The notes beneath the pieces were generated by a model. The model ran no database searches. It saw only the letters and a list, made by a program, of their open reading frames with translations, and was not told where the DNA came from. Below, one piece after another: positions 2-58,406 of a stretch of DNA of 64,000 nucleotides. The position numbers and the translations under genes are program-made. The DNA is from Candidatus Altiarchaeales archaeon ex4484_2 (GTDB lineage: Archaea; Altiarchaeota; Altiarchaeia; IMC4; QMZM01): the NCBI GenBank assembly GCA_002254565.1, contig NJEG01000015.1, forward strand, positions 4,726 through 68,725. The letters are read 5' to 3'. The stretch's first letter is position 1; every line of letters starts with the position of its first letter.

Positions 2-457
2 CTATTTAATGCTCTCTTATCTAACATACAAAACGAGAATTTGAACATAGACCGATTCCATTTCATAGATGGTATCACAAAAACAGTGCTGCCTGATGTT
101 AAAGACAGCGAGAAATGCACCTACGCACCATCAGCATCCGATCTTAAGGAGCTGGCAAAATCCATAGCCCAAGAGATGAACAAGAACAAATACGATGCCA
201 TGATATTCGATTCTCTTTCGACCCTGCAGATATACAATGAAGAAAAAACGGTTATAGAATTCGTCCACAGCTTCATAGGAAGGCTGAGGATTTCCGAGCT
301 AAGATCGGGTTTCACCTGCCTGGAAGGAGATACCAACACAACCCTTATCCGGAAGCTTGGTATGATAGTGGACAAGATAATAAGAATTGAGGCGCACATG
401 ATATGGGAGGGGGACAAGAAAACAATAACCTTCGAGACGAGGTCGCCTATTGTATAA
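2..457 (+). CDS. KaiC/RadA-like RecA-superfamily ATPase, C-terminal part (5' end lies outside the window)
   Basis: The frame is open from position 2 (LFNALLSNIQ...) into the listed 41..457 ORF. It carries an MIFDSLSTL beta-strand motif typical of KaiC-like ATPases. Confidence 0.45.
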   Translation, partial: LFNALLSNIQNENLNIDRFHFIDGITKTVLPDVKDSEKCTYAPSASDLKELAKSIAQEMNKNKYDAMIFDSLSTLQIYNEEKTVIEFVHSFIGRLRISELRSGFTCLEGDTNTTLIRKLGMIVDKIIRIEAHMIWEGDKKTITFETRSPIV

Positions 458-3411: not shown

Positions 3412-5142
3412 ATGGATTCAAACAAAATGATATTACCTGTCTTCATTGTTCTTGTTTTTTCAGCGACAGCATACTCAACAAGCCTTGAAAAAGAATGGTC
3501 TATAAACGTTAAAGGCAGTATACAGGACCTAATTGTTGCGGATGTTGATGGAGATAACATCCCAGAGATTGTTTTTTTCTTTAAGAACAACAACATCCAT
3601 AGAGATGACATCCTCTACGCACTGGATAATAAAGGAGGAGAGAGATGGCACCTGAATCTTGGTGATATAGAATCGGTTTATGTATCTGATTCGATGATTG
3701 AAGACCCCAGCACCCGAATCTTGGTAAGCTATGGGAAAACCAGCGAGGGGATAGAACAAGGCCATCTACTGATTCTGGATGGCGGAGGAAGGGAGGTATT
3801 GAGGTACCCCACCCCCGCGTTAGGTTCCACGCCCGTGATGTACAAGATGGAATCCGTTGACATAAACGGGAACGGATATAATGAGTTGATTGGAGGAACA
3901 AGGAAGGGTGTTTACGCCATAAACGACAGATTTACAGGGGAATTATGGACTTCAATGATCGGCCAACCTATAAGAGACTTCATACTCGAGGATATAGACT
4001 GCGACGGAATAACAGACATCATCTCTGAATCGCTTGGCGTAATCTATAATACAAACATCAAAAACGGCAGCCTTAGCTGGAAGATATCGACGGGAGATTA
4101 TATCAGCTCAGGGGATAATCAAACGACGGTAGAGAAAGATAAGGTTGTTGAAATACTTAAGGTGGGTGATGTCAGCCCACACCCTCACAAGGAGATAATC
4201 GCGGTCACATCCATGAATATATTCTTCATATACAACAGCAAGGGCAGTCTTATAAGTATTGGAGGAGACAGCAACGCAATACGGAGATATGTCAAAAACT
4301 ACAGCAATTACACCATCCATGAAGCAATAAGCGGCTACGGGAAAATAACAGCTTTAAGCCTCTATGACTTCAATGAAAACAGCCTCCAGGAATTTATTCT
4401 GGGAACAACCTCAGGGGTATATATCTGGGATATCCTCTCAGGTGAACACCAATTCAAAAACATTGGAGAAGTAAAGGCCATACAGAAAAGCCCTGATGGA
4501 CGGATATTTATATTAACAGAAAATGCAATCCATGAATTAGGCATAAACCAGGAGATAATAGAAACATATAGTTTAGGTGACAGCTATCAAAGAATCCATA
4601 TAGCTGACATTGATGGAATAGGTGGCCCAGAATTCATTTTGATAAAAGACAGGGATATATCAGTCTACTCAAAAAAAGAAACCCCAACAACAACCCTGGC
4701 TACGACAACCACAACGACCCGGGAAACCCCAACAACAACCCTGGCTACGACAACCACAACGACCCGGGAAACCCCAACAACAACCCTGGCTACGACAACC
4801 ACAACAGAACCGGAACACAAAAAGGAGGGAATAGACGCCTCAGATGTGCTGCTTGCGCTGATATCTATTGCATTGATTCTGGTGATTGCCAGACACAGTG
4901 TGGAAATCCTGAAAAAAAGAAGGAAGGTAAAGAAACCTGAGAAAGAGGAGGGTAAAAAAGAAATCGATATGCCAACGGAGGATGAGCTGAAGGCCTTGGA
5001 AAAGGAGATAGAAAAAAGAAAAAGAGAATACACAATTAAGAAATGGAAAGAGAAGGAATTAAGTGATAAAGAAAGAGAGCTAAGAGAGGAATGGGAGAAG
5101 AACGTAGATATAGTTGAAGAAGAAAAGAGAAAAAAGAGGTAA
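3412..5142 (+). CDS. surface protein: signal peptide, FG-GAP/VCBS-like beta-propeller repeats, Thr-rich linker, TM helix, K/E-rich cytoplasmic tail
   Basis: Repeated DxDGDG-type motifs (DVDGDNIPEIV, DINGNGYNELI, DIDCDGITDII, DIDGIGGPEFI). ETPTTTLATTTTTTR occurs 3 times. The hydrophobic segment LLALISIALILVIA is followed by KKRRKVKK. Confidence 0.6.
   Translation: MDSNKMILPVFIVLVFSATAYSTSLEKEWSINVKGSIQDLIVADVDGDNIPEIVFFFKNNNIHRDDILYALDNKGGERWHLNLGDIESVYVSDSMIEDPSTRILVSYGKTSEGIEQGHLLILDGGGREVLRYPTPALGSTPVMYKMESVDINGNGYNELIGGTRKGVYAINDRFTGELWTSMIGQPIRDFILEDIDCDGITDIISESLGVIYNTNIKNGSLSWKISTGDYISSGDNQTTVEKDKVVEILKVGDVSPHPHKEIIAVTSMNIFFIYNSKGSLISIGGDSNAIRRYVKNYSNYTIHEAISGYGKITALSLYDFNENSLQEFILGTTSGVYIWDILSGEHQFKNIGEVKAIQKSPDGRIFILTENAIHELGINQEIIETYSLGDSYQRIHIADIDGIGGPEFILIKDRDISVYSKKETPTTTLATTTTTTRETPTTTLATTTTTTRETPTTTLATTTTTEPEHKKEGIDASDVLLALISIALILVIARHSVEILKKRRKVKKPEKEEGKKEIDMPTEDELKALEKEIEKRKREYTIKKWKEKELSDKERELREEWEKNVDIVEEEKRKKR
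4678..4805 (+). repeat. 45-bp perfect tandem repeat (~2.8 copies) encoding the Thr-rich linker
   Basis: The unit gaaaccccaacaacaaccctggctacgacaaccacaacgacccgg sits at 4678-4722 and 4723-4767, with a partial third copy. Confidence 0.95.
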
Positions 5143-6917: not shown

Positions 6918-7673
6918 ATGGCTCGAATAATAGGTGTTGTTTCAGGGAAAGGCGGGGTCGGAAAGACTACACTAGTTTCTAATCTAGGTGTTGCTCTAGC
7001 TCAGGAGGGTGCAGATGTAGCAATCGTTGACGCAAATCTTACTGGCGCAAATCTGGGTTTACATTTTGGGTTGATTTCCTACCCTGCATCAATACACGAT
7101 GTGATGAAAGAAAACGCTGCTCTGCCGGATGTTATGTACAAGCACCCAAGCGGGGTGGATATTATACCTTCCTCGCTCTCCATGGAGGATGTAACCACCG
7201 AACCAAAGAACATAAGAGCAGCATTCGATGAACACCTAAGTGACAAAGACTTTGTTCTCGTAGACTGCGCTACAGGACTGGACAGGGAGACACTAACGGC
7301 ACTGGAAATGTGCGATGAAGTTTTGCTGGTAACACATCCCGAGCTTCCTACCATCTCCGATGCCCTGAGAACCAAAACCCTGGCTAAAGAATACAATAAA
7401 AAGCTTTTGGGTGTGGTATTGAACAGAGTAAATAGGAGGGATGAGATGAAGATTGAAAACGTGGCATCGTTTTTCGATTTACCTGTAATAGCAGCTATAC
7501 CAGAAGACAGCTCCATAAGAAAGTCTATTGAGGCGAAGAACCCCGTAATCCTGAATAACCCAAACCACAAGGTGAGCAGGGAAATCAGGAAAGTATCTGA
7601 TTACCTCTCAGGCAAGGCAAGAAGACGGGAGAAAACCCTTACGGACAAGATAATTGACCTGTTTCGGTGGTAA
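6918..7673 (+). CDS. minD: MinD-type (ParA/MinD superfamily) ATPase
   Basis: Deviant Walker A GKGGVGKTT and archaeal MinD-like length and sequence. Confidence 0.8.
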   Translation: MARIIGVVSGKGGVGKTTLVSNLGVALAQEGADVAIVDANLTGANLGLHFGLISYPASIHDVMKENAALPDVMYKHPSGVDIIPSSLSMEDVTTEPKNIRAAFDEHLSDKDFVLVDCATGLDRETLTALEMCDEVLLVTHPELPTISDALRTKTLAKEYNKKLLGVVLNRVNRRDEMKIENVASFFDLPVIAAIPEDSSIRKSIEAKNPVILNNPNHKVSREIRKVSDYLSGKARRREKTLTDKIIDLFRW

Positions 7674-7720
7674 ATTATTGTTCTCCAGCCGTATATGAAC
7701 CATACTAAATAAGAGGGACA

Positions 7721-8341
7721 ATGGCTAAATTAATGGTTGAACTAGACGATATGCAGAAAGACATTCTCAAGGAAGTCAGCAACATAAGCTCTGGTAAAGC
7801 GCTCACCAGCCTAGAGAAATATGTCAAATCCCAGATAGTAGAGGGGCTACCCTTCATGGATATTATGATGGTTGGTAGCATACCCAACTTCCTAGGAAAC
7901 GGTAAAAAAGAGATTATTGGTATATGCTCTACCGTGGAAGGAGACCTCAACGGTAAGGTCATGACAATCTTTCCCCTTAAAAGCGCTCTGGTTCTCGTTG
8001 ACCTGGCATATGAAAAAGATATCTACTCCACGAAAGAGCTGACGGAAAAAGAAAATAACCTCATAAAGATGATGGGTGAGTCACTGTTTAGCTCCTACAT
8101 AGATGCTCTTACAGAGCTCTTGGAGATAAATGTATCACACGGGGAATCGAAGGTGCTGAAGAGTACTGGCGATAAGATAATAAAAAAGTCAGAGATGGGA
8201 AACGGTGATGAATTCGCCCTCGTACTCGAAACAGATTTCTCGGTTCCCGACTATAACTTTGAGGGGGACTTTCTTTTAATAATAAGCACCACATCAATGG
8301 ATATGCTCCTAACGTCCGTGCAAAAGAAATTCGGTTTCTAG
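7721..8341 (+). CDS. cheC: CheC-family CheY-P phosphatase
   Basis: The first-half motif D-x3-E-x2-N (DILKEVSN) followed by ISSGKALTSL is present. The second repeat is degenerate. Confidence 0.7.
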   Translation: MAKLMVELDDMQKDILKEVSNISSGKALTSLEKYVKSQIVEGLPFMDIMMVGSIPNFLGNGKKEIIGICSTVEGDLNGKVMTIFPLKSALVLVDLAYEKDIYSTKELTEKENNLIKMMGESLFSSYIDALTELLEINVSHGESKVLKSTGDKIIKKSEMGNGDEFALVLETDFSVPDYNFEGDFLLIISTTSMDMLLTSVQKKFGF

Positions 8342-9405
8342 GAGCTGATAAGCTCTAAAATTTTTTTGGATATTTCAGGTAAAGACACGACTTCATCAAC
8401 TGCACCCGATTCAAAGGCTGACTTAGGCATGCTTGATATTATCGAGGTGTCCTCGTCCTGTGATATAGTCCGCCCCCCCATCCTCTTAATCTGTTTCATG
8501 CCTTCTGTGCCATCATGTCCCATCCCCGTTAAAATCACGCCAACAACCTTCCCAGTGTATGCCTGCGCAACAGAAGACATGGTTACATCAATAGAGGGTC
8601 TCATTCCATTAACCATGGGACCCTTATCCAGCCTCATAATCCTGTGAATTCCATCATTTACCTTCTCCTTTTTTACCTTGAGATGGAAGCCTCCCGGAGC
8701 GATAAAAACCTTTCCCTTAGTCACCATTTCACCATCTCTGGCTTCCACCACGGGCAGAGAAGTCAGGGAATCAAGCCACGACGCGAGAGTCAGGGTAAAT
8801 TTGGGGGGCATGTGCTGCACAACAATCACTGCGGCATCTATTTTTGTTGGTAGTTTGGACATAATCTTGCAAAGTGTTTTCGGGCCACCAGTAGAGGCAC
8901 CTATCACCACAACATTCTCCGCCTCCACAGCCAACGGCTTCTTTTTCTTTTTCTTGGAAGACTGCTTGCACTTGGATAGTTCCGTAGACGAAAACATATT
9001 CGCTTTAGCAGACGACTTGATCTTTTTAATCAACTCCTCCTGAGCGTCCTTCATCCGGAAAGAAACCCGCCTCCTATCAGGTTTAGTCACGAAATCAACC
9101 GCCCCAGAGTTCAGGCTCTTGATCGTTTCCTCCGCCCCATCATAGGTGAATGCGCTTACCATTATCACCGGCTTAGGGTCTACCTTCATTATATGTTTTA
9201 ATGCGGTTATGCCATCCATCAAAGGCATATCGAGGTCCATGGTAACAACATCAGGGTCTAGAGAAGAAACCTTGGCTAAGGCTTCCCTGCCATCAGCTGC
9301 TGTACCTACAACCTCTATCTCAGGGTTAGAGGATAACATATCAGAAATAATCTTCCGCATAAAAGCTGAGTCATCAACAACCAAAACCCTGATCTTTTTC
9401 ATCAT
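8338..9405 (-). CDS. cheB: chemotaxis response regulator protein-glutamate methylesterase
   Basis: An N-terminal receiver domain (VLVVDDSAFMR...DLDMP) plus the CheB methylesterase domain (IGASTGGP, GMGHDG). Confidence 0.9.
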   Translation of the reverse strand: MMKKIRVLVVDDSAFMRKIISDMLSSNPEIEVVGTAADGREALAKVSSLDPDVVTMDLDMPLMDGITALKHIMKVDPKPVIMVSAFTYDGAEETIKSLNSGAVDFVTKPDRRRVSFRMKDAQEELIKKIKSSAKANMFSSTELSKCKQSSKKKKKKPLAVEAENVVVIGASTGGPKTLCKIMSKLPTKIDAAVIVVQHMPPKFTLTLASWLDSLTSLPVVEARDGEMVTKGKVFIAPGGFHLKVKKEKVNDGIHRIMRLDKGPMVNGMRPSIDVTMSSVAQAYTGKVVGVILTGMGHDGTEGMKQIKRMGGRTISQDEDTSIISSMPKSAFESGAVDEVVSLPEISKKILELISS

Positions 9406-9603
9406 AATAATATCTCAAATATTCTGAGTAATAAATAAACGACATATACCTATAAACCAGATAACGAAGCCTGAAACCTTAAGAAACCACTTAAGAGCAC
9501 CAACAACAGGATTAACTACTACGATTTAGTGTGATAGTATAACCTGCATAATACATAGAAAAAGAGATATGATTCACTGAATATACTCTTTTTTCTGTTG
9601 CAT

Positions 9604-10263
9604 TTATTTTTTTGGGGTAGACTTCTTGCTCTTCCCGCCAGATCTCTTTTTCTTCACAGCCTTCTTCACAGCCTCAGGCTTCACAGCCTTCTTCACAGCC
9701 TCAGGCTTCACAGCCTTCTTCACAGCCTCAGACTCCGTGAGATCTTTGACCCCTGCCGTCTTACCATGGTCTTCGGCTACAATCAAACCCCCCCACTCCT
9801 CCTCAGAGAATAATTCATCAACATCCAGGAGGATGATAAACCTCTCCTGATCTTCCAGTATCACAATCCCATGGATGTAATCAGCATGTATATTCTTTGT
9901 TATTATATCCGGCGGCTCCTTAATGTGGTCGCTATCCACCCTCAGGACATGGGATATGTCATCCACTATAACCCCAAGCATCCGACCCCCAGTCTCCACC
10001 AGAATTATGTGGGTGCCATCTTCATCCCTGCCCAGATTAAACCTCTCCTTGAGGTCAACGACAACAACAATCTTACCCCTGACGTTGATGATGCCCTTAA
10101 TAACAGCAGGCGTTCTAGGCACAGGAGTGATGCTGGACATCCTAATTATTTCCCGTACCTTATGTATCTCGAATGCGTGTTCCTCATCACCCAACTTGAA
10201 CACCACAATCTGAACTTCCTCGCCTGACTTCTTCTCATCCGTCTCATAATTTGCTAGAGCCAT
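9604..10263 (-). CDS. cheW: CheW coupling protein with a C-terminal Lys/Ala/Pro-rich repeat tail
   Basis: CheW domain (VVFKLGDEEHAFEIHKVREI...INVRGKIVVVVDL), followed by AVKKAVKPE 3 times and then KKKRSGGKSKKSTPKK. Confidence 0.85.
   Translation of the reverse strand: MALANYETDEKKSGEEVQIVVFKLGDEEHAFEIHKVREIIRMSSITPVPRTPAVIKGIINVRGKIVVVVDLKERFNLGRDEDGTHIILVETGGRMLGVIVDDISHVLRVDSDHIKEPPDIITKNIHADYIHGIVILEDQERFIILLDVDELFSEEEWGGLIVAEDHGKTAGVKDLTESEAVKKAVKPEAVKKAVKPEAVKKAVKKKRSGGKSKKSTPKK
9652..9731 (-). repeat. 27-bp tandem repeat (~3 copies) encoding the CheW basic tail
   Basis: The plus-strand unit cttcacagccttcttcacagcctcagg repeats at 9652, 9679 and 9706. Confidence 0.9.
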
Positions 10264-10373
10264 CTTTAAGTTAAACTAGCCCCCCATTCTCAGGTTTCTC
10301 CTTATTCTGTTGCTTGGAAATCTTGAACTTAGCTGTATTCCTGTTTAAGTCATCAGCTAGGTCGCGGAACTCT

Positions 10374-11834
10374 TCAGATATCGGTAATTTCCGAGATTAT
10401 CCCAACAACCTGCTGCGCTCCACTGGACTGCTCCTGCGCACCAGCTGAAAGCTCCCCCACCTGCGTTGAAACATCAGCTATGGAGTCACTTATCTGCTCA
10501 AGAGACTTCAAGGCTCTGCCAACAACCTCCGTTCCCTCCCTCACCTTTAACGTGCTTTTCTCCATACTATCCACGCTCTTGCTTGTCGAATCCTGCATTC
10601 CCTCAATAAGCCCGGATATTTTATCAGCTGCCTCAGCGCTTGACTCAGCGAGCTTTCTAACCTCATCGGCAACAACAGCGAATCCTCTGCCCGCATCACC
10701 TGCTCTCGCAGCCTCTATAGTAGCGTTTAACGCCAGAAGGTTGGTTTGCTCGGCTATATGCGTTATGGTGCTGACAATCTTCCCAATCTCCTGACTCTTC
10801 TCGTTGAGGCCGGATATGCTTGCAGCAGACTCATCAACACTGTTTCTGATTTCAGCCAGACTCTCCAAACCCTTACCGGCGCTTTCACCACCCTCTTGTG
10901 CGACCTTGTTCACTTCGCTGGTTTTCTCCGCTGCCGACTCTATGCTCCTAGCCATCTGGTCTAATGTGGATGACATGTCCACAACCGTCTTCCTAGCCTC
11001 TTCCGTCTTCTCGGACTGCTCCTGAGAACTCTTGGATATTCCCTGCGTGGTCTTTGATATCTCCTCAGCCATGTCACTGACCTGCTTAGCGTTATTTAAT
11101 AACTGCTCCCCACCAGTTGCTAATGATGTGGAGGTGTCGGTTATTCCAGCAATTAAATCTGTGAAGTCTCCAATCATAACGTTTATGTTCTGTGCCAGAC
11201 TCTTAATGTATGAATTCTTGATGTCTTCATTGGCTCTTAGAGTTAAGTCCCCGGCTCCTGCGCCCTGGGTCACATCAATAATCGAGGCTATTCCGGTAGC
11301 CAGTTCCTTGTTGGTTTCCTCTATCAGCTCGACCTTCTCCGCTAGGCTTTGAGCAACGAGGTTGATGTCTTCTCCCAGCATCTTCACCTCAGGAACATCT
11401 ATGGCATCGGTGTCTGCTCTGGCTTTATAGTCTCCCTCCGATACCTTAGCGAGAGTGATGGAGAGTTTATTAATTCCCTCCTTCATGCTCCTGGAATTAT
11501 GTAACAAAGTCGCTGCGGCATCATTAATGTCCATGCCCAGCATCTTCACCTCAGGAACATCTATCTCGTTAACATCCACCTGGCTCTCATATTTGCCATC
11601 GATTATCTTAGCCAGGACAGCGGAGAGTTTGCTGACCCCAATCTCTATATCCTTTTTATTTTTAAGCAACTGTTTCTCCTTATTTTTCAGTTCAGTTATG
11701 TCGGTTACATACTCCAATGCCCCAATGATGTTCCCATCATCATCCTTAATCGGCGCGCCAGTGTATCTAATCGGCAGATCCTCTCCCGTTGCGCGAGAGA
11801 TGGTTTCAGCAGTGAACGTATCATCTTTGTCCAT
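10374..11834 (-). CDS. methyl-accepting chemotaxis protein, C-terminal part: second half of a PAS domain, two HAMP-like modules, signalling domain. No TM helix.
   Basis: Conserved MCP hairpin region ([36 protein letters not shown]). The frame stays open upstream of the ATG to ~11879 ([19 protein letters not shown]...). Confidence 0.85.
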
Positions 11835-11842
11835 AGCCTGCT

Positions 11843-12436
11843 TCAGACGACATTCATCAGTACCATAATGGGAGTAGGTACCCGGTTGAGGTAGTCCACC
11901 TTCTCGCCGGCGTCCTCAAGCATTTTCTCAAGTGTCTCCGAGATAACGTCTAAGGCAATATTGATGTCCTCACCCAGCATCTTCACCTCAGGAACATCTA
12001 TCTCGTTAACATCCACCCTGACATCATAATCACCACTAGCTACCTTAGCCAGAGTATTAGATAGTTTATTAACCCCCTTCTGTATCTCATAAGTGTTGTT
12101 CTCTAAGACCTTGACGGCGTCGTTGATGTCTTCACCCAACATCTTCACCTCAGGAACATCTATCGCGTCAACATCCACCTTAGCCTTATAGTTCCCGGTA
12201 GCTATCTTAGCTAAAATGTTGGAAATTCGATTAATCTCTACATCAAGCTTTCTCTTTTCTGTAGCTGCTTTTTTATCTGATTTTTTATCCATTTTCTCCC
12301 CTAATTGCTCATTGGTTTCGGAGGCGGGAGCCTTATCTTTCCCTTCTATGCTCTCCCCTCGTTTATCAGATTCTTCCCTCTCAAAGAACTTTTTTCTACC
12401 CTTCTTTTCACCCTTCTTCTTAGCCATTTTATGCAA
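11843..12436 (-). CDS. N-terminal fragment of the same MCP: basic tail, two HAMP-like modules, start of a PAS domain
   Basis: [16 protein letters not shown] tail. Modules share [14 protein letters not shown] with the downstream ORF. It ends in [10 protein letters not shown], the start of a PAS domain, 8 nt before the next ORF and in a different frame. Confidence 0.7.
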
Positions 12437-12519
12437 TACATTAAACTAAATGAACCTGAAAAAAAAACAATGAGAGGCTGCCTTGATTAAAGGACAACCA
12501 CCCATCCAAGATAACCCCA

Positions 12520-12738
12520 CTAATCAGCCGTTAGGCTTTCATCAGTGCTACCATCTGGTAGAAGAGTAATTGGTGCTTTCTTATCCTTCAGAGACAACTG
12601 GTATCGAGCACAAGCCTCGTAATTACCCTTACAGTAGTGTCTGGTCCAGATTTGCTTTGCAGCATCCCCACTGAATTTCTCAAATATCGGGCACTCATCC
12701 AACTTAGGGCAGTTTTCCGCCATAGCATTCACCTCCAC
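12520..12738 (-). CDS. small conserved-looking 4-Cys protein (72 aa), function unknown
   Basis: Cysteine pattern CPKLDECPIFEKF...YCKGNYEACARY. It sits in the same orientation between parA-like and the MCP. Confidence 0.5.
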   Translation of the reverse strand: MEVNAMAENCPKLDECPIFEKFSGDAAKQIWTRHYCKGNYEACARYQLSLKDKKAPITLLPDGSTDESLTAD

Positions 12739-12785
12739 TATTTTTTTAGATAAACTATCTTATGGACAATCTATCGATTTAATTA

Positions 12786-13628
12786 TCATGTTCCATCCAG
12801 CAACCCGCTGCTAATCTCCTTGTATATGCGGTTTATGCCATGCCCCGGGTTGTAGTAACACAAGGGCAGGCCCGCTGACTGGGCATTATATATCTCGGGA
12901 GAGTAGGGTATCACATGCAGGTTTTCCCCAAATGACTTGTTTATTGATAAAAAAATCTGCACATTATCCTTCACATCCAACGACGGATGCCTGTAGGAGG
13001 ATATAAGATTTGACAACATACGAGAGAACCTGTAGGATAATGAATCCTGGGGCACGGTTAATGTTACAGCATGGATGTTTATGTCAGAGCTAAGCTCCTT
13101 CTCTATGTCACCAAGCAAGGTGGTGAAGTCCCTGATACTTTCCATGGTGAAGGCTCCAGTATCCAAGGGGAGGATAATACGGTCAGCAGCATAAACCGAA
13201 TTAATAAGAAAGTAACCATAGCTTGGGGGGGTATCCACCAAAACAAAATCATAGAAACCCCTTATTCCATCCATTGAATCCCTCAACACAGTAAAGGGAT
13301 TGTCTGCCTTATGTATCTGGGTCAGTATCCCTGATAAGTCCAGGGTTGCTGGAGCTATATCCAGATTTTTTACCTCAGTGGTCAGAATCACATCCTCCAG
13401 CAGGGTTTTTTCATCGCCAGTGCATCCACTCAACAGGACGTCATACATGCAGGCATCTATCTCCTCGCCATCTAAACCCAAAGCTGATGTTGCATTACCC
13501 TGAGGATCTGAATCAACAACCAAAACATTCCTGTTATTCCTCGCTAACTCACCAGCAAGATTCACACACGATGTTGTCTTCCCCGTGCCGCCTTTATGGT
13601 TAGCGAAAACAACACACTTACCCTCCAT
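12786..13628 (-). CDS. ParA/Soj-family ATPase
   Basis: Walker A NHKGGTGKTT and the VVDSDPQGNAT motif. Confidence 0.8.
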   Translation of the reverse strand: MEGKCVVFANHKGGTGKTTSCVNLAGELARNNRNVLVVDSDPQGNATSALGLDGEEIDACMYDVLLSGCTGDEKTLLEDVILTTEVKNLDIAPATLDLSGILTQIHKADNPFTVLRDSMDGIRGFYDFVLVDTPPSYGYFLINSVYAADRIILPLDTGAFTMESIRDFTTLLGDIEKELSSDINIHAVTLTVPQDSLSYRFSRMLSNLISSYRHPSLDVKDNVQIFLSINKSFGENLHVIPYSPEIYNAQSAGLPLCYYNPGHGINRIYKEISSGLLDGT

Positions 13629-13633
13629 TTTAC

Positions 13634-13685
13634 CCTGTTAGATATTAATACACTAACCAATATAAATGTGCATGTATCTAACAGG
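13634..13685. promoter_or_regulatory. 11-bp perfect inverted repeat in the divergent parA-like/cheY intergenic region (candidate operator)
   Basis: CCTGTTAGATA at 13634-13644 and TATCTAACAGG at 13675-13685, with a 30-nt AT-rich spacer. Confidence 0.35.
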
Positions 13686-13784
13686 TTATATACTGACATT
13701 TATTAATTGTTATAATTTATCAGCAAACTATTTATTTGATGATGGAGAATATAATATAAACAGAACTAAAAGAGGAGATTCATC

Positions 13785-14147
13785 ATGAGTAAAATATTAA
13801 CCGCGGACGATTCTGTATTTATGAGGAAGATATTGATTAAGATACTCAACAAGATGGGACATAAAGATATCATTGAGGCAGAGAACGGAGATGATGCGCT
13901 TAGGATATTCAAGGAGGAAACGCCCGATCTTGTCTTGCTCGATATTGTCATGAAGGGTAAATATGGAATAGACGTACTAAAGGACATAATGAAAATCAAC
14001 CCTGATGCTAGGGTAATCATGGTTTCTGCAGTGGGACAGGAGAGTATATTACATGAGGCCAAGGATATAGGAGCGAAGGATTTCATAACCAAGCCCTTTA
14101 AGGAAGAAATGGTAATCGAGACAATAAATAGGGTTCTTAAGTCATAA
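13785..14147 (+). CDS. cheY: chemotaxis response regulator CheY
   Basis: A 120-aa single receiver domain (ILTADDSVFMR, LVLLDIVMKG, KDFITKPF). Confidence 0.9.
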   Translation: MSKILTADDSVFMRKILIKILNKMGHKDIIEAENGDDALRIFKEETPDLVLLDIVMKGKYGIDVLKDIMKINPDARVIMVSAVGQESILHEAKDIGAKDFITKPFKEEMVIETINRVLKS

Positions 14148-14195
14148 CTGCCGGTTTCAGTAGTTCTAGGATTATTCCAGTAACTGCACCATAAA

Positions 14196-15782
14196 ATGAC
14201 TGAAGACATGCGGGAGTATTTAGATTTATATCTAAGCGAAGCCGAAGACCTGCTGCAGTCGCTGAATGAATCCCTTCTAGAGTTCGAGAAAACCCCCGAA
14301 AAGAAGGAGTACATAGATGAAATACAAAGATGTGTTCACACCCTGAAAAGCAGCTCTGCCTCTATGGGATTCAACCAGATTTCTGAACTATCCCATTGCA
14401 TGGAGGATGTGTTGGGAGGTATGAAGAAGGATGAGATTGAGATAAACGACTATGTTGTTGATATAATATTCGAGTGCTTTGATGTCTTGGAGAGAGGCGT
14501 GGACAACGTCAGGAAAGGTAAAGAGGAGCCTGACGTATCCAACGTCCTCAAGCATCTGGATAAGATAAAGGAGGGTAGGATTGATTCACTGGAGGAGGAT
14601 GTTGAGGGTGGAGAGCTGGCTGATAAACCCCATACACTGAAGACTGTGCACTCCATAAAGGTTAACGTAGAGAGTCTGGATAAACTCCTCGAGCTGGTTG
14701 GTGAACTATTGATTGCCAAGATGAGACTCCAGAACATCAACAGCCATATAGATGATGCGGACCTTGATGAGTTAACAACACTCCTTAGCCGGTTGATAGA
14801 GGATATACAGTACCAGATCACCGAGGCCAGGATGATTCCCGTCGACCACATATTCTCTCGATTTCCCCGGATGGTGCGGGATATCGCGAAAAGAGAGGGT
14901 AAAAGGGTTAGTTTCGTAATAAAGGGCAGTGAAATCAAGCTGGACCGGACCATACTAGACAAGATAGGTGAGCCCCTGATCCACCTTCTGAGGAATGCAG
15001 TAGACCATGGGATAGAGATGCCTGAGGAGAGAAAAGATAGGGGTAAGCAGGAAACGGGAACCATAAAGCTCACAGCCAGAAGGGAGAGGAACAAGGCAGT
15101 AATAGAAATCGAAGACGATGGAGAAGGCTTTGATGCAGAGGCTATAAAAGATGTAGCTGCTAGAAAGGGGTTGTATTCAAGGGAACAACTTAATTTGATG
15201 GCCGAGAAGGATCTATTTAATCTGCCTTTCCAGCCCAACTTCAGCACCTCCAAAAAGGTCACGAACGTCTCGGGCAGAGGGGTTGGGTTGGATGTGGTTA
15301 AAACCAGGATAGAGGAACTCAACGGCACAGTAAAAATGGAGTGTGAAAGAGACAAGGGCACCAGGTTCACTATCACCCTGCCTTTAAGCCTTGCCATAAT
15401 AAAGAGCCTGCTGATTGATGTATGCGATGGAACCTACGTAATCCCCATCTCTAACGTGATGCGGATACTGCCCTCCAGGGACGCCCACATAAGACATATT
15501 GAAGGAAGCGAGTGCATTGTATTAGACAATGAGACAATACCCATCATCAGAATCAAGGATAAATTCAATATCAAAGGAGAAAGCCCCGACAAAAATTTTG
15601 TAATTATCATAGAAAAAGGTAGCGAAAAAATCGGGCTGGTGGCCGACAGGATAGTGGGACAGCAGGAGATAATGATAAAGAACCTGGACAAAGAGCTTAG
15701 AGAGTTGAAGGGCATAGCTGGAGCCAGCATCCTAAGCGACGGGAATCTTGCTTTGGTCATCGACATTTCAGGGATAACATGA
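14196..15782 (+). CDS. cheA: chemotaxis histidine kinase CheA (short form, no obvious P2 domain)
   Basis: Hpt site HTLKSSSASMGF, an HATPase_c domain (LLRNAVDHGIE, GRGVGLDVV), and a C-terminal CheW-like domain. Confidence 0.9.
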   Translation: MTEDMREYLDLYLSEAEDLLQSLNESLLEFEKTPEKKEYIDEIQRCVHTLKSSSASMGFNQISELSHCMEDVLGGMKKDEIEINDYVVDIIFECFDVLERGVDNVRKGKEEPDVSNVLKHLDKIKEGRIDSLEEDVEGGELADKPHTLKTVHSIKVNVESLDKLLELVGELLIAKMRLQNINSHIDDADLDELTTLLSRLIEDIQYQITEARMIPVDHIFSRFPRMVRDIAKREGKRVSFVIKGSEIKLDRTILDKIGEPLIHLLRNAVDHGIEMPEERKDRGKQETGTIKLTARRERNKAVIEIEDDGEGFDAEAIKDVAARKGLYSREQLNLMAEKDLFNLPFQPNFSTSKKVTNVSGRGVGLDVVKTRIEELNGTVKMECERDKGTRFTITLPLSLAIIKSLLIDVCDGTYVIPISNVMRILPSRDAHIRHIEGSECIVLDNETIPIIRIKDKFNIKGESPDKNFVIIIEKGSEKIGLVADRIVGQQEIMIKNLDKELRELKGIAGASILSDGNLALVIDISGIT

Positions 15783-16144
15783 GAGTCATAAACAAGACCA
15801 AAGGCTTGATCATATCCCATGAGTGTTCACTAGCCGGAAGCCTCTCCTCGAGAATGAGAGGACTTATTCTCTCCGATAAAAAGGATCTTGTTCTTGCCTC
15901 GCCCAGAGAGGATATACGGTCGTCGAGCATACACATGGCCTTCATGCAGTACCCGATTGATGTTTTGTGGCTGGACTCCAACATGAGGGTTGTTGATCTA
16001 CGAAGAAACATCCAGCCCCTTAATCCCCTGATCAAAGACACCTGGAGAGTATATAAACCCAGAGAGCCCGCGAAATATGTAGTAGAGTTAGGTAAAGAGA
16101 ATATAATAGAAACAGATATAGGGGATGAGATAGAGTTCCGCTAG
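15779..16144 (+). CDS. DUF192-family protein
   Basis: MRGL...S.IHM..M.YPIDVLWLDSNMRVVD...AKYVVEL pattern of DUF192/COG1430. An ATGA overlap links it to the cheA stop. Confidence 0.65.
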   Translation: MRVINKTKGLIISHECSLAGSLSSRMRGLILSDKKDLVLASPREDIRSSSIHMAFMQYPIDVLWLDSNMRVVDLRRNIQPLNPLIKDTWRVYKPREPAKYVVELGKENIIETDIGDEIEFR

Positions 16145-16936: not shown

Positions 16937-17431
16937 CTATTCTTTTCTCAGGCAAATCCCATCCCTGCAGCCGTAACGGCAGTTGTAGTAGATAGATTTT
17001 ATTTCACCTTTCTCGCAATAATACTCCCTTAACATATCCCCCTCACATATGTCGTTGACCACCCTCCCGTCCCTGTGGATTACTGTGCCATGTATGTGGT
17101 ATTCTCTGCCCCCATCAGTGTCTCTACACTCCAGAAGGGTTGTTGTTGTAGAGGATGTTGTGGTGGGTGAGGTTGTTGTAGAGGATGTTGTGGTGGGTGA
17201 GGTTGTTGTAGAGGATGTTGTGGTGGGTGAGGTTGTTGTAGTTATGTAGTAGATTGTTGTGGTATATGCTGTTGACGTGGAGATGGTGGGAGCAGTTGAT
17301 GTGGTGGAAATGCTAAAAGAGGATGTTGTGGATGAGGACTTGGGGGGTTGTTCAGGAGTCTCCACGATACAACCAGTAAACAACAATAGAGATAGTGTAA
17401 GTACCAGAATGATGTGGTGATTTTTTTCCAT
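16937..17431 (-). CDS. secreted, possibly lipid-anchored protein with a Thr/Ser-rich repeat and a C-terminal Cys-rich domain
   Basis: Signal/lipobox-like LLLFTGC, TTSPTTTSST 3 times, then a CRDTDGG...DICEG...YYCEKG...CRYGCRDGIC domain. The start is taken at the MEKNHH methionine. Confidence 0.55.
   Translation of the reverse strand: MEKNHHIILVLTLSLLLFTGCIVETPEQPPKSSSTTSSFSISTTSTAPTISTSTAYTTTIYYITTTTSPTTTSSTTTSPTTTSSTTTSPTTTSSTTTTLLECRDTDGGREYHIHGTVIHRDGRVVNDICEGDMLREYYCEKGEIKSIYYNCRYGCRDGICLRKE
17138..17242 (-). repeat. 30-bp tandem repeat (~3.4 copies) encoding the Thr/Ser-rich linker
   Basis: The unit ggttgttgtagaggatgttgtggtgggtga is perfect at 17171-17200 and 17201-17230, with variant copies flanking. 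Confidence 0.9.
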
Positions 17432-17460
17432 GGATATATATGGATTTATCCGGTAATTAA

Positions 17461-18780
17461 TCACATCCCTATGTTACCGCCCATACGCTTCATCAATCTG
17501 CGGAGCTTTCTCTCATCGCCCATGGACTTCATCATCTTCTTCATTTTCTTATAGTATACTAATAGTTCCCTGACCTCCTCTGGCTTGCTTCCGCTGCCTT
17601 CAGCTACACGCCCCAGGCGGTCTTTTTTGATGATGGACGGATCCTCCATCTCCTTCCCGGTCATGGAGTCCATGATAACCTTCCACCTTTGCATCTTACC
17701 CTCCTGCATATCAAGCATTTCCTTGGGGATTTTAGCCTGAAAAGGCATCAACTCCATAATCTTCTTCATGGAGCCCATCTTCCCAACCTGCTCTATCTGG
17801 GTGTAGACCTCGTTGAGTGTGAATTTCCCTGACATAATCCTCTTAGCGGTTTCCTCGTCTAAGTCAGCCTCCTGAGCTCTCTCCAACAAACCCTCAATAT
17901 CCCCGAAACCAATAAGCCGGGAAACAAAACGCTCTGAATCGAATTCCTCGAAGTCCTCAACATGCTCTCCAACCCCTACGAAATAGACAGGAGCTCCTGT
18001 AGCAGCGCATGCGGAGATTGCGCCCCCGCCCTTGGCTGAACCATCCAGCTTAGTCAGGATAACCCCGTCCACCTGGCTATGCTTCCTGAAGGCCTTCGCC
18101 TGCTCTCCAGCCTGCTGTCCGGTGGTGGCATCCAGGACCAGAAAAGTCTTATCCGGCTTTATTTCAGAACATATCCTACCTATCTCGTCCATCAACTCCT
18201 TGTTCATTTTATGCCTTCCCTCGGAGTCGATGATGATAACACCCTCATCCTTGAATTCCTTCAAGCCGTTTTTTATTATGGAAAGAGAGTTTTTCCCCTC
18301 AGGGCTGCCGTAAAATGGGACGTTTATCTGCTCCGACAGCTGCCTCAGCTGATCGAATGCAGCAAGCCTGAAGGTGTCGGCACAAATCAGTTTAGGGTTT
18401 AAGCCCTTCTTTTTGATGTATCTGGCAAGCTTCGCGGCAGTGGTGGTCTTACCGGAGCCCTGGGTCCCCACCAGAAGGATTCTATCGTTTTCATTTAGCG
18501 GGATTTTCTCCCCGGCACCCAGTAGTTTAACCAGCTCATCATAGGTTATCCTTATAAGATTCTCTCCCCTGGACAAGGCCCCCGGGGGTTTCTCCAGCAA
18601 ACCTCTTTCTTCAATATTCTTTGAGAGCGCAAACACCAGCTCCACATTAACATCAGAGGAGATAAGAGTCTTCTGTATGTCCTTCGTGTACTCCTTCACT
18701 GTTTTCTTGTCTACAACAACCGCCTTCCTCAGACTCGTTACAGCACCCTGCAAACCATCCCTGAGCTTATCTAAAACCAT
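17461..18780 (-). CDS. srp54: signal recognition particle protein SRP54
   Basis: NG domain (GTQGSGKTTTAAKLA, DTFRLAAFDQL, TKLDGSAKGG) and a Met-rich M domain. Confidence 0.95.
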   Translation of the reverse strand: MVLDKLRDGLQGAVTSLRKAVVVDKKTVKEYTKDIQKTLISSDVNVELVFALSKNIEERGLLEKPPGALSRGENLIRITYDELVKLLGAGEKIPLNENDRILLVGTQGSGKTTTAAKLARYIKKKGLNPKLICADTFRLAAFDQLRQLSEQINVPFYGSPEGKNSLSIIKNGLKEFKDEGVIIIDSEGRHKMNKELMDEIGRICSEIKPDKTFLVLDATTGQQAGEQAKAFRKHSQVDGVILTKLDGSAKGGGAISACAATGAPVYFVGVGEHVEDFEEFDSERFVSRLIGFGDIEGLLERAQEADLDEETAKRIMSGKFTLNEVYTQIEQVGKMGSMKKIMELMPFQAKIPKEMLDMQEGKMQRWKVIMDSMTGKEMEDPSIIKKDRLGRVAEGSGSKPEEVRELLVYYKKMKKMMKSMGDERKLRRLMKRMGGNIGM

Positions 18781-18839: not shown

Positions 18840-20114
18840 ATGAACAGTCTACATATAGGTCTTGTTTATGCATTATGGTTTTTTGTGACCTTCTTTTTCA
18901 TGGTCAAGAACAGGGATGAATTCTTTAAAGAACCTAAATCGCTAAGTGAAAAAGAAAAGATAACAATACTAGTTCCCGCATTCAACGAAGAAGAAACCAT
19001 AGCCGACACGATAGAATCCATTCTCAGGCTTGAGTATCCCAAAAACCTGCTGGAGATTATCGTGGTAAACGACGGCTCCAGCGACAGATAGAATCCATTC
19101 TCAGGCTTGAGTATCCCAAAAACCTGCTGGAGATTATCGTGGTAAACGACGGCTCCAGCGACAGGACAGGGGAGATAGCGAAGAGGTACTCCGATAAAGG
19201 GAGTATAAGGTTAATAGGGAATCCATGAAGCGAGAGGGGAGTTGATTGCTACAATAGACGCTGACACCGTTATAGAAGGTGATACATTAGAGAAGGTGTG
19301 CGGCTACTTCAGGGAGGAGGATATTGGAGCGGTTATCGTAAGGGTTAGGGTAAAAAACCCCAGTAACTGGCTGGAGAAAATCATCGAGATGGAATATAAC
19401 ATGGGCCTAGGATTCTACCTCAAACTACTCTCCTTCCTCAACTGCCTCTACCTGACACCCGGACAGTTCAGCATATACCGGAAAAGGGTTTTAGAGGATT
19501 TAGATGGCTTCGACGTAAACAACATAGTTGAGGATACTGAAATAGCCTACAGGATGCAGAAAAAGGGATACCGGATAGCCTGCTGCCTCTCAGCTTACGT
19601 TTACACCAAGGTGCCCAACAACGTGCGCTCCTTCTACTACCAGAGAAGGAGATGGTACTCTGGAACCATACAAACAATACTAAAACACAGGGACGTGTTC
19701 TTCAACAGAGAGCTGGGCAACTTCGGGATGTTCTTCATGCCAGTGAACTATGGAGGAATCATCATCGGGACACTACTTTTCCTCTCCACGATATACCTGA
19801 CAGCCCAGACAGTATATGATTATATCATATACTACAGCCTCATAAACTTTGACATCATAGGCTCGACCGTAAACATCATACAGACCGCTGAAATAGACCC
19901 CCTGATGATAAGCATATTCTACTTCCTGGGCATAAGCCCCTTCATAATGAACGCCCTAATCAACTTCTACGCTCTGAGAAAGATGGGTGAAAGCTTCAGG
20001 GAATCCTTCTTCGGATTCATATGCTTCCTGTTCTTTTTCATACCATACAACACCCTCTGGATTATCTGTGCCTATGTAGTAGTAAGAAACAAGCAAATAA
20101 AATGGCGAGAGTAG
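18840..20114 (+). pseudogene. family 2 glycosyltransferase with a multi-TM C-terminus, disrupted by a 77-bp tandem duplication and a second frame break
   Basis: The N-terminus ILVPAFNEEETI...VVNDGSSD runs into a stop created by the duplication. The frame breaks again at ~19215-19240, where the GKA.ALN segment is missing. It then continues as ARGELIATIDADT...EDTEIAYRMQKKGYR. Confidence 0.75.
19011..19164 (+). repeat. exact 77-bp tandem duplication (2 copies) inside the GT2 gene
   Basis: 19011-19087 and 19088-19164 are identical (atagaatccattctcagg...ggctccagcgacag). Confidence 0.95.
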
Positions 20115-41963: not shown

Positions 41964-43307
41964 CTAGATTAAGAGGAAATCTTTCAGGAATAACAGATAG
42001 CTTTTATCTCTCAATTCCAGCACCTCGACACCCTCCTTTATCTCAACTTTAGCTTCCTCACGTAGGTTTCGACCGAATCCCCTCCTCTCTGCTGTGATTT
42101 TTTCTATAAGCTGCCTCGCCGTTTTATATTCCCTCTCAGCGTCGGCCATCCATCTACCGTCTTCCAGATAGGTTTTCCCGTATTTATCCCTGAATCTCTT
42201 CTGGTCTCCTCCTTTTTTATCTGCCGGCGGACCAAGTCTTTTCTCGATCACAGGCAGAGCGTGCACCTCCAGCTCAAAGAGGATTATGGAAAGATTTACC
42301 TCATTCGTCCAGTACCCGGATTTCACAAACCTGAATCCCCGCTCCTCCATTAATAATTCAGTTGCCTTCAGGGTCTTCCTCAACTGAGAATGCAGGCTGT
42401 TGACGTTGATTGCAGGATGATTGAATTCCATTAAAAGAAACCTTGTGCCCCTGGATTCCATAGCCCCCTTTATTTTAGGGATGGGTGGAGCAGTTCTATC
42501 AGGGGGGAAAAAATATTCCCTGCCTGGTTTCTCCAGGAATCTTTCAGCCTTGAACTTGAACAATGCGATCCTCTGCCTGGAGACAGCAGCAGCAGCATTC
42601 CTGTATCTGTCCACCGGGTCGATTATTACCAGATCGGATTCAGGGAACAGGCATCTTATCTCCTGCCTGGAAGCCCATGAATCTTCTGGGTCAAGTATTT
42701 CACCGAAATGCCAGTCAACAGCCGCCTCCAAAACCCCCCTAAAGGAGCCATAGTTCAAAACCAGCAACTCCACCAAGTAACCAGAGAAACCCTGAGTCTT
42801 GGTTTCAGCCCCATACACACGTATACCCTTCATGAATTGCTTCAAAAGTAGGATTTCATCTCTTAATCCCCTGTCCTGCCTGAGTTTTCTCTTAATGTAG
42901 TTGGTATGGTGTGGCGTTCTATCAACAGCCGACTTGATATGTTCCATATCAACTTTATAGCAGGGTACCACGTCCACATCATATCCCCCATAGAATCCCA
43001 CCACATAAGGATGCTCTGCATAGTCTATCTCGTATTTCGCATTCAGGGAATCAAAGGCCTTCTTCCCGGCTTCAACACCCTCTTCCTCGAGTGTTTCTCT
43101 GCTAACTGACTCATCAAATAAAATAAAGAGGTCTATATCCTTATCTGCTCTCAGGTCTGTTTCCTTAGCTAAAGAACCTACCAGGAGCGATTCCATTCCC
43201 AGTTTCTCAAGCTCCCCTTTTACTTCACCTATTATACGCTTCTCTCTGGTGCGCTCCTCTTTTGTGGGTTTTATCTCCTCCAGCATAGACTTCAATAGTT
43301 CATCCAT
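41964..43307 (-). CDS. cca: CCA-adding enzyme (archaeal class I tRNA nucleotidyltransferase)
   Basis: GSLAKETDLRADKDIDLFILF nucleotidyltransferase motif, with archaeal CCA length and body. Confidence 0.9.
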   Translation of the reverse strand: MDELLKSMLEEIKPTKEERTREKRIIGEVKGELEKLGMESLLVGSLAKETDLRADKDIDLFILFDESVSRETLEEEGVEAGKKAFDSLNAKYEIDYAEHPYVVGFYGGYDVDVVPCYKVDMEHIKSAVDRTPHHTNYIKRKLRQDRGLRDEILLLKQFMKGIRVYGAETKTQGFSGYLVELLVLNYGSFRGVLEAAVDWHFGEILDPEDSWASRQEIRCLFPESDLVIIDPVDRYRNAAAAVSRQRIALFKFKAERFLEKPGREYFFPPDRTAPPIPKIKGAMESRGTRFLLMEFNHPAINVNSLHSQLRKTLKATELLMEERGFRFVKSGYWTNEVNLSIILFELEVHALPVIEKRLGPPADKKGGDQKRFRDKYGKTYLEDGRWMADAEREYKTARQLIEKITAERRGFGRNLREEAKVEIKEGVEVLELRDKSYLLFLKDFLLI

Positions 43308-43822
43308 TATAGCTTAACCCTGTCCACCCGGTAGTAGGTTATGTCCCCCTCCCCGTCAACCAGGGCGTAAATCATCTCCTTGTTCACGTTCTGGGAGAGC
43401 CTTACCGCTCTGGCCAGCTCCGGGAAAGAGCAGGTGTATTCCTCAGGTACTACATGGACCATATAATCAGAGTGCCCTGTTTTTATAGAAACCCCCCTGC
43501 CATAGACCCTATAGTCTGACCCGAATTTCAGGCCTGTTCTAACCAGAAGACCTCTCTCCCTTAGATCACTATAGACAAGGTACTTTGAGTAGAAATCTTT
43601 TTTTATCCCATTCCCTTCATCCACCAGATCATTGAAGGAAAAGTTTTTTTTGCCGTCGCTGACCTGCATCTTTTCTTTCTCCACCAGATAGATTGCCTCA
43701 ACCAGCGACAGCTGCTGCCTGCTGCCCTCCTCCTCACCGAAGCCCTTATCCCTCAGGAAACTCTTCAGGTCACTGTCTACTACAACAACCTTGGAACCGG
43801 AAAGCAGACCCGTGTTAGCCAT
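43307..43822 (-). CDS. endA: tRNA-splicing endonuclease (short, homotetramer-type subunit)
   Basis: YLVYSDLRERGLLVRTGLKFGSDYRVY...HSDYMVHV. Its stop overlaps the cca start (TAATG). Confidence 0.85.
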   Translation of the reverse strand: MANTGLLSGSKVVVVDSDLKSFLRDKGFGEEEGSRQQLSLVEAIYLVEKEKMQVSDGKKNFSFNDLVDEGNGIKKDFYSKYLVYSDLRERGLLVRTGLKFGSDYRVYGRGVSIKTGHSDYMVHVVPEEYTCSFPELARAVRLSQNVNKEMIYALVDGEGDITYYRVDRVKL

Positions 43823-58246: not shown

Positions 58247-58406
58247 GGGGCTGTGGGGTAACCAGGCATCCTAGCGGGCTCCAGAATCAATGGAGCGCTG
58301 ATTTCCCGCAGGGGAGAGATGACGAAAAACAGGTCAGAGACCGATAAGTCTTGAAGAAACTGGATGGAGTGACCTGCCGATGGGGGTTCAAATCCCTCCA
58401 GCCCCA
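58247..58406 (+). tRNA. tRNA-Trp (CCA) with an ~87-nt intron at the canonical 37/38 position (intron ~58285-58371)
   Basis: Exon 1 is GGGGCTGTGGGGTAACCAGGCATCCTAGCGGGCTCCAG. Exon 2 is ACCTGCCGATGGGGGTTCAAATCCCTCCAGCCCCA. The anticodon stem GCGGG/CCTGC forms only after intron removal. Confidence 0.85.

Follow-up and report, generated by a model that had tools for sequence, protein, structure and literature searches.

Positions 6918 to 16144 of a 64,000-nucleotide (nt) stretch of contig NJEG01000015.1 (hereafter the window) from Candidatus Altiarchaeales archaeon ex4484_2, an archaeon of hot marine sediment, include a chemotaxis (che) block in which the gene for a ParA-type ATPase lies close to that of a membrane-free chemoreceptor, a pairing that recurs in three archaeal lineages. 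Every gene named for this block in the original prediction was recovered by open reading frame (ORF) and domain searches at the coordinates given there. Most of these genes form two divergent strings departing from a 156-nt intergenic spacer (13629-13784), presumed from the gene coordinates to be the promoter region. On the reverse strand lie the parA-like gene (12786-13628), a gene for a small protein with four conserved cysteines (4-Cys; 12520-12723), the receptor gene mcp (10374-12427), cheW (9604-10263), and cheB (8338-9405), the last gene of this string. On the forward strand lie cheY (13785-14147), cheA (14196-15782), and a DUF192 gene (15779-16144), while a minD gene (6918-7673) and a cheC-like gene (7721-8341), both also on the forward strand, complete the left side of the block. 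The divergent parA / cheY-cheA layout was also found in the related locus L007, and base composition is unremarkable.

The receptor, a methyl-accepting chemotaxis protein (MCP) with Pfam MCPsignal, PAS, and HAMP matches, appears in the window as two pieces (10374-11834 and 11843-12427). Two further public assemblies contain this locus, namely L001/L014 (scaffold_261) and L013 (scaffold_146), and there the gene is a single intact ORF of 789 aa (L001:11202-13571 and L013:16495-18864). Junctions mapped with blastn against L001 and L013 showed that the window lacks 121 nt at 11861/11862, inside the MCP PAS domain, and 85 nt at 10382, close to the 3' end of the gene. Further segments are missing relative to both assemblies at 1572/1573 (~154 nt) and 21237 (137 nt), and L001 has 100 N at the window join 4705/4706. 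Because the window lacks these short segments (85-154 nt, present in two independent assemblies of the same organism) and contains no N at all (count 0), the split MCP and several other apparent frameshifts are artefacts, and we infer that assembly gaps were stripped from the window sequence. A true pseudogene is ruled out by the intact ORF in L001 and L013 and by the mapped missing segments. Positions ~19087-19222 are an additional site of this kind, and the missing segments make not only mcp but also the glycogen-debranching gene (466-1596 / 1467-2231) and glycosyltransferase genes look falsely frameshifted.

The intact receptor begins with a basic N-terminal peptide and a stretch of mixed charge, continues with a PAS domain flanked by two HAMP-like repeats on each side, and then has a signalling domain (PF00015, 163.3 bits, cut-off 34.6). 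Its highest 19-residue Kyte-Doolittle mean is only 1.01, compared with 2.64 for the SecY of the same window, indicating that the protein has no membrane segment. A receptor without transmembrane (TM) segments had been predicted from the incomplete gene, and the part recovered from L001 and L013 indeed holds none. TM segments were likewise lacking in the receptor beside ParA in every case examined (window, Altiarchaeota, Methanoregula boonei, and an ANME-1-like clade). Archaea commonly have soluble PAS receptors, and cytoplasmic proteins make up 44% of their MCPs (PMC9680633). As a separate observation, the PAS core (residues ~218-235 of the L001:11202-13571 protein), which is absent from the window at 11861/11862, contains a C-x8-HC-x4-C motif (KCYSLFKTDHCETDEC), and this motif suggests a metal or redox cofactor in the domain.

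The ATPase (280 aa), which shares 100% identity with a protein of Candidatus Altiarchaeales archaeon ex4484_2, matched Pfam AAA_31 at 150 bits, along with CbiA, and no family-specific NCBIfam model, with ParA 8RAY and Helicobacter pylori Soj 6IUB as its closest solved structures by sequence. It carries a deviant Walker A motif with the signature lysine (xKGGxGK[ST]; FANHKGGTGKTTSC), of which K12, G13, G14, G16, K17, T18, and T19 are invariant across an alignment of 13 ParA relatives. The che-linked archaeal proteins share the form F-x-[NH]-HKGGTGKTTSC, whereas bacterial Soj proteins have NQKGGVGKTTT. When the AlphaFold2 model (predicted local distance difference test score, pLDDT, 84.9) was compared with known structures using Foldseek, the best folds were HpSoj 6iub, ParA 8ray, Soj 2bek, and McdA 6nop, with template modelling scores of 0.75-0.82, against 0.65-0.70 for MinD. 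The C-terminus (...YKEISSGLLDGT) shows no end resembling a membrane-targeting sequence and no amphipathic membrane-targeting helix. Membership in the ParA/Soj branch rests on the Walker A motif, the fold, and this missing helix.

Across the related loci we examined, the association between this ATPase and che genes was strongly conserved. ParA-che linkage was found in the window and, beyond it, in 13 or more related loci belonging to three archaeal lineages, in rearranged surroundings, and che genes lay beside the subfamily ParA in every related locus with enough flank. The expected co-occurrence of the parA-like gene with che genes in related genomes thus holds across Altiarchaeota, Methanomicrobiales, and the ANME-1-like clade. 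Within Altiarchaeota (L007, L010, L164, L008, L003/L004, and L009), ParA adjoins che genes in relatives at 84%, 83%, 57%, and ~40% ParA identity. A ParA-alignment scan of one genome per GTDB species returned Methanomicrobiales as the best among the matches listed, with no Altiarchaeota among them, and all three Methanomicrobiales loci with enough flank (L018, L019, and L020) encoded CheW, MCP, and CheR within 6 kb of parA. The M. boonei genes are ordered parA-mcp-cheW-mcp-cheR, and its ParA is 34% identical to that of the window. The Methanoregula formicica contig ends 570 nt past parA, so that a che link is not visible, and the cut ORF after parA starts with residues that, by eye and without an alignment, are like those of M. 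boonei MCP1. Cytoplasmic arrays have reportedly been imaged in M. formicica. The ANME-1-like clade combines parA with genes for a soluble poly-HAMP MCP and a TM-containing MCP, cheW, cheY, a cheX-like gene, and cheB.

Among the matches listed from the same GTDB scan, bacterial Soj-like loci (28-37% identity) had no che match, and most had parB directly after soj. No parB was found in any of the archaeal che-parA loci, and neither parB nor segB adjoins the parA-like gene of the window. A CheA-guided search of a plasmid collection recovered che regions of Phaeobacter, Deferribacter, and Cupriavidus, all without parA. A partition gene of the ordinary chromosomal or plasmid type that had come to lie beside che genes by coincidence might be expected to have chromosomal Soj and ParA as its best sequence and fold matches and to match no family-specific NCBIfam model, as seen here. 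However, it would not be expected to stay linked to che genes in at least 13 loci of three archaeal lineages despite rearranged surroundings, to lack a partition partner, and to combine a distinct Walker A with a motif on the neighbouring receptor (described below), and we consider such a coincidence extremely improbable. Functional coupling of the ParA-type ATPase to the chemosensory array is instead likely, judging from this conserved neighbourhood. The core module common to Altiarchaeota, Methanomicrobiales, and ANME-1-like archaea is the gene for this ATPase plus that for a membrane-free PAS/poly-HAMP receptor.

The receptor motif lies at the very start of the protein. The likely start codon of mcp is the ATG at 12427 and not the TTG taken originally, and the predicted basic N-terminus is real, with a net charge of +5 over the first 20 residues. 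The first 15 codons (12383-12427, reverse strand) encode a candidate ParA-binding, ATPase-activating peptide with the motif GR[KR]x[FL][FY]. A scan of the first 22 residues of 3,057 ORFs (>=100 aa) from the window and related loci detected this motif in 14, all 14 of them soluble MCPs beside a che-linked ParA, while the other MCPs of the same loci lacked it. It was also present in L221/L222, L164, M. boonei MCP2, and L019. The N-terminus of the window receptor is shared in form with those of L007 and L164, whereas the soluble MCPs of other loci begin with MTKKKGRKEFYKK (L010), MMVTTGRKAGRRALYA (L008), MIDKPGRKALFTGP (L016 and L018), MTEKMGRKALFMG (L019), MTELPGRKALFTG (L020), MTEQRPGRKALFVG (M. 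boonei), MEKNKVRKPGRKALFED (L017), or MVKDKIRKPGRKALFED (L221 and L222). Besides the form found in the window, MTEQRPGRKALFVGAQ is put forward as a second form of the candidate peptide.

ParB proteins from bacterial soj-parB loci have a K/R-rich N-terminal start followed by GLG[RK]GLxAL[FLI], a peptide of which the archaeal receptor motif looks like an abbreviated version. Short, positively charged N-terminal extensions are common to activators of ParA/MinD ATPases, TlpT among them (PMC7993993; PMC10241942), and PpfA, which is encoded beside TlpT, works via the TlpT N-terminus "in a ParB-like manner" (PMC3964821). Given this precedent and the ParB-like motif, the basic tail of the receptor may be a ParA-contact peptide, or a contact peptide and DNA tether combined. 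A role as ParA-contact, ATPase-activating peptide would fit the tail at least as well as one as DNA tether, and we regard the case that this peptide is the ParA contact as evenly balanced.

The PpfA-TlpT system, encoded in CheOp3 of Rhodobacter sphaeroides, resembles the archaeal loci in having parA beside the gene of a TM-less receptor within a che cluster, no parB, a basic N-terminal extension on the receptor, and an ATPase with a Soj-like fold and no membrane helix (PMC3964821). The window differs in its archaeal host, the Walker A sequence HKGGTGKTTSC, the combination of PAS with several HAMP-like units, and a polybasic tail on CheW. PpfA homologues have been reported in the che operons of as many as 77 species, among which are four archaea, namely Methanoregula boonei, Methanosphaerula palustris, Methanoculleus marisnigri, and RC-I (PMC2829493, supplementary file 5; Hamer et al. 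2010), and the same study linked PpfA homologues to cytoplasmic receptors (PMC2829493). The Methanomicrobiales and Methanocella ParA/PpfA homologues belong to the same subfamily and the same module as the altiarchaeal proteins, and one soluble MCP of M. boonei starts with MTEQRPGRKALF. The window differs from these methanogen cases in the more strongly basic N-tail of its receptor, its CheW tail, and the divergent cheY-cheA gene order. Our findings correct the original prediction's statement that such a system had not been described in archaea: since the 2010 list already includes PpfA homologues from che operons of archaea, the lack of an archaeal precedent applies to experiments only, the methanogen proteins having been listed without analysis or test (PMC2829493). 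The extension to Altiarchaeota and ANME-1-like archaea, the subfamily signature, the receptor motif, and the CheW tail appear to be new.

The window CheW (219 aa) consists of a CheW domain (residues 18-155, 127.6 bits in Pfam) and a 59-residue tail encoded at ~9607-9783, in which Lys/Ala/Pro repeats precede a polybasic stretch. Three exact 27-nt repeats (9652-9731, 100% matches) encode EAVKKAVKP three times, followed by KKKRSGGKSKKSTPKK, and the net charge reaches +11 over the final 25 residues. The repeats and the charge bear out the Lys/Ala/Pro tail noted originally, while the suggested co-occurrence of a tailed CheW in related genomes is only partial. The CheW of L010 ends with RKKKKKRKSKSKKKKK (+15) and that of L008 with the weakly basic KKRSRKKQTPVV (+3), the sequences being unrelated, but the CheW proteins of Methanomicrobiales (M. 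boonei) and of the ANME-1-like clade have no basic tail. As judged from these sequences, the polybasic CheW tail is an altiarchaeal addition. Because its charge is kept and its sequence is not, binding to a polyanion is suggested, with DNA as an obvious candidate.

Such tails also bring into consideration direct tethering of the array to DNA, with the N-tail of the receptor and the histone H1-like tail of CheW holding the array in place and ParA being dispensable or having a minor role in partition. FrzCD of Myxococcus xanthus is likewise a TM-less receptor whose N-terminus carries positive charge and is probably disordered; this basic tail of ~30 residues binds DNA non-specifically, and its relatives conserve charge rather than sequence (PMC5716589). 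The charges on the window MCP N-terminus (+5 over 20 residues) and CheW tail (+11 over 25), as well as the persistence of basic CheW tails in L010 and L008 despite unrelated sequences, agree with this possibility. However, the strongly basic stretch of the altiarchaeal receptor extends over only ~15 residues, beyond which the tail is mixed or acidic. Moreover, the receptor keeps a specific short motif across phyla and not just charge, which fits a protein-protein contact better, and a che-linked ParA gene lies in the locus, whereas no ParA role has been reported for FrzCD, whose tail binds DNA directly. In Methanomicrobiales and the ANME-1-like clade, the receptor peptide is only weakly basic (e.g. 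MIDKPGRKALFTGP) and the CheW tail is absent, yet the linkage to ParA persists. We thus consider direct tethering of this type unlikely, and it is doubtful though conceivable that the MCP and CheW tails bind DNA.

Taking these features together, we lean slightly towards a PpfA-like cargo partition as the explanation of the locus. Following the PpfA-TlpT paradigm, the receptor, CheW, and CheA would form a cytoplasmic array, and ATP-bound ParA dimers would sit on a large matrix. Given the Soj/McdA-like fold of the ATPase and the lack of a membrane-targeting helix, this matrix would most likely be the nucleoid, a choice that we make tentatively and rate a little short of even. The disordered basic N-terminal peptide of the receptor (GR[KR]x[FL][FY]) would contact ParA and stimulate its ATPase, as ParB N-termini do, and arrays would thereby be spaced and segregated at division. 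In Altiarchaeota, the polybasic CheW tail may additionally make the array stick directly and non-specifically to DNA, as FrzCD does, or to a different polyanion.

Several points weigh against this scheme, all steps of which are, for any archaeon, a proposal from genes alone. The likeness to PpfA-TlpT is one of genomic features, and the neighbour-joining tree that sets the che-linked archaeal ParA proteins apart from bacterial Soj is a rough one. In three altiarchaeal lineages (L003/L004, L009, and L008), the gene right after parA is a hydrogenase or hyp gene and not that of the receptor, and the motif-bearing MCP lies 3.5 kb from parA or out of view. The basic N-tail of the receptor could instead bind DNA directly, as in FrzCD. 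The ATPase is acidic (isoelectric point 4.6), with a net charge of -1 over its C-terminal 100 residues, and DNA binding by this protein is not evident from its sequence because no basic residue outside the Walker A motif is invariant in the 13-sequence alignment. Positions 200 and 203, beside the aligned HpSoj K199 and near a Soj DNA contact, are only semi-conserved as R/K.

An acidic ATPase in which no conserved basic patch is evident would also suit targeting to a landmark, in which the ParA-like protein anchors or recruits arrays to the cell pole or the motility apparatus and not to the nucleoid. ATPases of the ParC type sit in che operons and work via polar landmarks (PMC10241942; PMC11407121), and "flagellar" genes have been reported in Alti-2 Altiarchaeales (PMC4975002). 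The ParC-ParP systems of Vibrio and other gammaproteobacteria share with the archaeal loci a ParA-like ATPase, encoded in the che operon, that controls array placement (PMC10241942), but they rely on a polar landmark and on the CheW-domain adaptor ParP. None of these archaeal loci showed a ParP-like partner, which would combine a CheW domain with an N-terminal region that binds ParC; the candidate partner peptide is instead found on the soluble receptor, as in PpfA-TlpT. The fold is moreover nearest to those of Soj, ParA, and McdA, which use the nucleoid, and lacks a membrane-targeting helix, making landmark targeting quite unlikely in our view. Cargo partition of the PpfA type remains the reading we prefer, and a more specific version of it can be formulated. 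This version posits a two-gene module in at least three archaeal lineages, composed of a ParA with the HKGGTGKTTSC signature and a receptor whose first 10-20 residues mimic the ParA-activating peptide of ParB and which would act as the "centromere-binding protein" of a cytoplasmic signalling organelle, with the H1-like CheW tail gluing the array to the nucleoid in Altiarchaeota. We regard this version as speculative and rather doubtful; if true, no earlier protein cargo in archaea would match it in being both scaffolded on the nucleoid and actively partitioned. The placement of large cytoplasmic assemblies in archaea is almost unknown, and the locus and its relatives provide a concrete candidate for a PpfA-like cargo-partition system in this domain, with a candidate contact peptide that is short and well defined.

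The MinD-like ATPase encoded at the left flank of the che block (251 aa) had been proposed as a second dedicated component. It is a general archaeal MinD (TIGR01969 minD_arch, 225.7 bits, cut-off 201.75), and its C-terminus, KIIDLFRW, resembles the amphipathic membrane-targeting helix of MinD-type proteins. In L011, a 1.56-Mb contig, and in L012, minD forms an adjacent pair with the DUF192 gene (spacing 0-2 nt) in the context LarC-LarB / MinD-DUF192 / SRP54 plus glycosyltransferases, with no che gene, and the DUF192 protein of the window (121 aa) is 55% and 41% identical to the product of the gene after minD in these two loci. In the window and in L010 (ex4484_96), the che block lies between these same two genes, and the start of the DUF192 gene, which forms the right flank, overlaps the cheA stop of the window by 4 nt. 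Since minD and the DUF192 gene form a conserved pair elsewhere without che genes, they are neighbours through rearrangement and not parts of the system; the DUF192 protein, counted originally as a member of the island, is the usual partner of MinD.

MinD4 of Haloferax volcanii is, like the window proteins, an archaeal ATPase of the ParA/MinD family, and influences chemosensory array and archaellum placement; it differs in being a membrane-associated MinD-type protein that is not encoded in a che cluster, whereas the window MinD is the general altiarchaeal form partnered with DUF192. In archaea, no ParA/MinD protein other than Haloferax MinD4 is known to be tied by experiment to chemosensory arrays. 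Its effect on array placement (PMC11407121; PMC10241942) and the spacing of 47 nt between minD and the cheC that follows it, seen both in the window and in L010, are what speaks for the original model, in which dedicated ParA-like and MinD-like ATPases jointly position the array. However, no minD was found within 10 kb of the che clusters of the 20-kb loci L003, L008, and L009, the protein fits the general archaeal MinD model, and its identity across Altiarchaeota (65-87%) far exceeds that of ParA over the same relatives (~40%). Together with the che-free minD-DUF192 pairs, these results largely refute the joint model as a genomic association; we hold it to be very unlikely, and a dedicated role of MinD in the che system highly improbable.

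The 4-Cys protein encoded between parA and mcp was also found, with 67 aa instead of the 72 aa first assigned. Its gene occupies the same position in L001, L013, and the close relative L164 but is missing from the parA-mcp interval of L007 and L010. A word-indexed search yielded only one variant of the protein, at 97% identity, whereas an exhaustive search yielded 376 family representatives at E<=0.001. The family has invariant C5, C11, C31, C38, R40, P56, and G58 and the consensus C-x5-C-P-x-F...W..YC-x6-C-x-RY...VP.TLLPNG, and neither Pfam nor NCBIfam has a model for it. Its members frequently stand alone at a length of 60-90 aa, and fusions to ankyrin repeats occur in some bacterial ones. 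A degenerate DNA pattern retrieved 120 metagenome loci, 115 of which held a member of the family, with che genes nearby in just one of the 115 (L164). A conserved partnership with the che genes, as suggested originally, is contradicted by these distributions, and on this sequence evidence the protein is a recent lineage-specific insertion from a large unannotated family. Adjacency alone (minD, DUF192, and the 4-Cys gene) had thus over-called the system, just as the apparent receptor pseudogene was an artefact of assembly.

The CheC-like phosphatase (206 aa) scored 25.7 bits against Pfam CheC (cut-off 22) and matched NCBIfam CheC_Thtogales at E=1e-16, under that model's cut-off, and it is kept in L010 at 71% identity. 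CheB, a methylesterase with a receiver domain, matched Pfam CheB_methylest at 221 bits and Response_reg at 83 bits, and the response regulator CheY (120 aa) matched Response_reg at 91.9 bits. The histidine kinase CheA (528 aa) matched NCBIfam CheA_Halo at E=1e-141 and has the architecture P1-P3-P4-P5 (Pfam Hpt, H-kinase_dim, HATPase_c, and CheW), without P2, as only ~45 residues separate Hpt (7-106) from the dimerisation domain (152-209). All altiarchaeal relatives of CheA seen were 525-530 aa long.

No cheR, cheD, or cheF had been noticed in or next to the block. This is correct within the window, but in L013 a second cheC (228 aa), cheD (159 aa), and cheR (274 aa) are located 7-9 kb upstream of minD on the same contig, with the end of cheR ~400 nt to the left of window position 1. 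Neither cheF nor archaellum genes were found within the 64-kb window. Beyond the left end of the window, L013 carries cheC, cheD, cheR, and a KaiC/ArlH-like gene (200 aa) in this order, after which comes the glycogen-debranching gene with which the window begins. In more distant Altiarchaeota (L003, L008, and L009), cheR, cheD, and cheC are contiguous with cheA, cheY, and parA, in the order CheR / CheD-CheC-CheA-CheY-CheY / CheC-ParA. Because these distant relatives keep the genes contiguous, the window organism appears to have a rearranged version of an ancestral altiarchaeal che cluster, and window positions 7721-15782 are part of a chemosensory gene set that now lies between the housekeeping genes minD and DUF192. 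The 200-aa protein, which shows weak KaiC/ArlH-like similarity (DUF7504), adjoins cheR in Altiarchaeota (window 41-457, forward strand; L013:5930-6532; L003:2918-4132), and more distant altiarchaeal lineages have two paralogues of it plus a 202-aa CheC-like protein. This protein beside cheR may be an uncharacterised che-associated component.

Elsewhere in the window, an Rfam tRNA match of 160 nt (58247-58406, forward strand, 36.7 bits) that was not called by ARAGORN is probably an intron-containing tRNA, and a tRNA-splicing endonuclease gene is found at 43307-43822. Tandem peptide repeats rich in Thr (TTTLATTTTTTRETP; TTSPTTTSSTT) are found in a surface protein with FG-GAP repeats (3412-5142, forward strand) and in a small, Cys-rich, secreted-looking protein (16937-17464, reverse strand), and likely form glycosylated stalks. 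Finally, the gene at 48404-51487 on the reverse strand encodes a protein of 1027 aa that has an S-layer-like outer domain (PF05124) and may bear on the S-layer/hamus question in Altiarchaeales.

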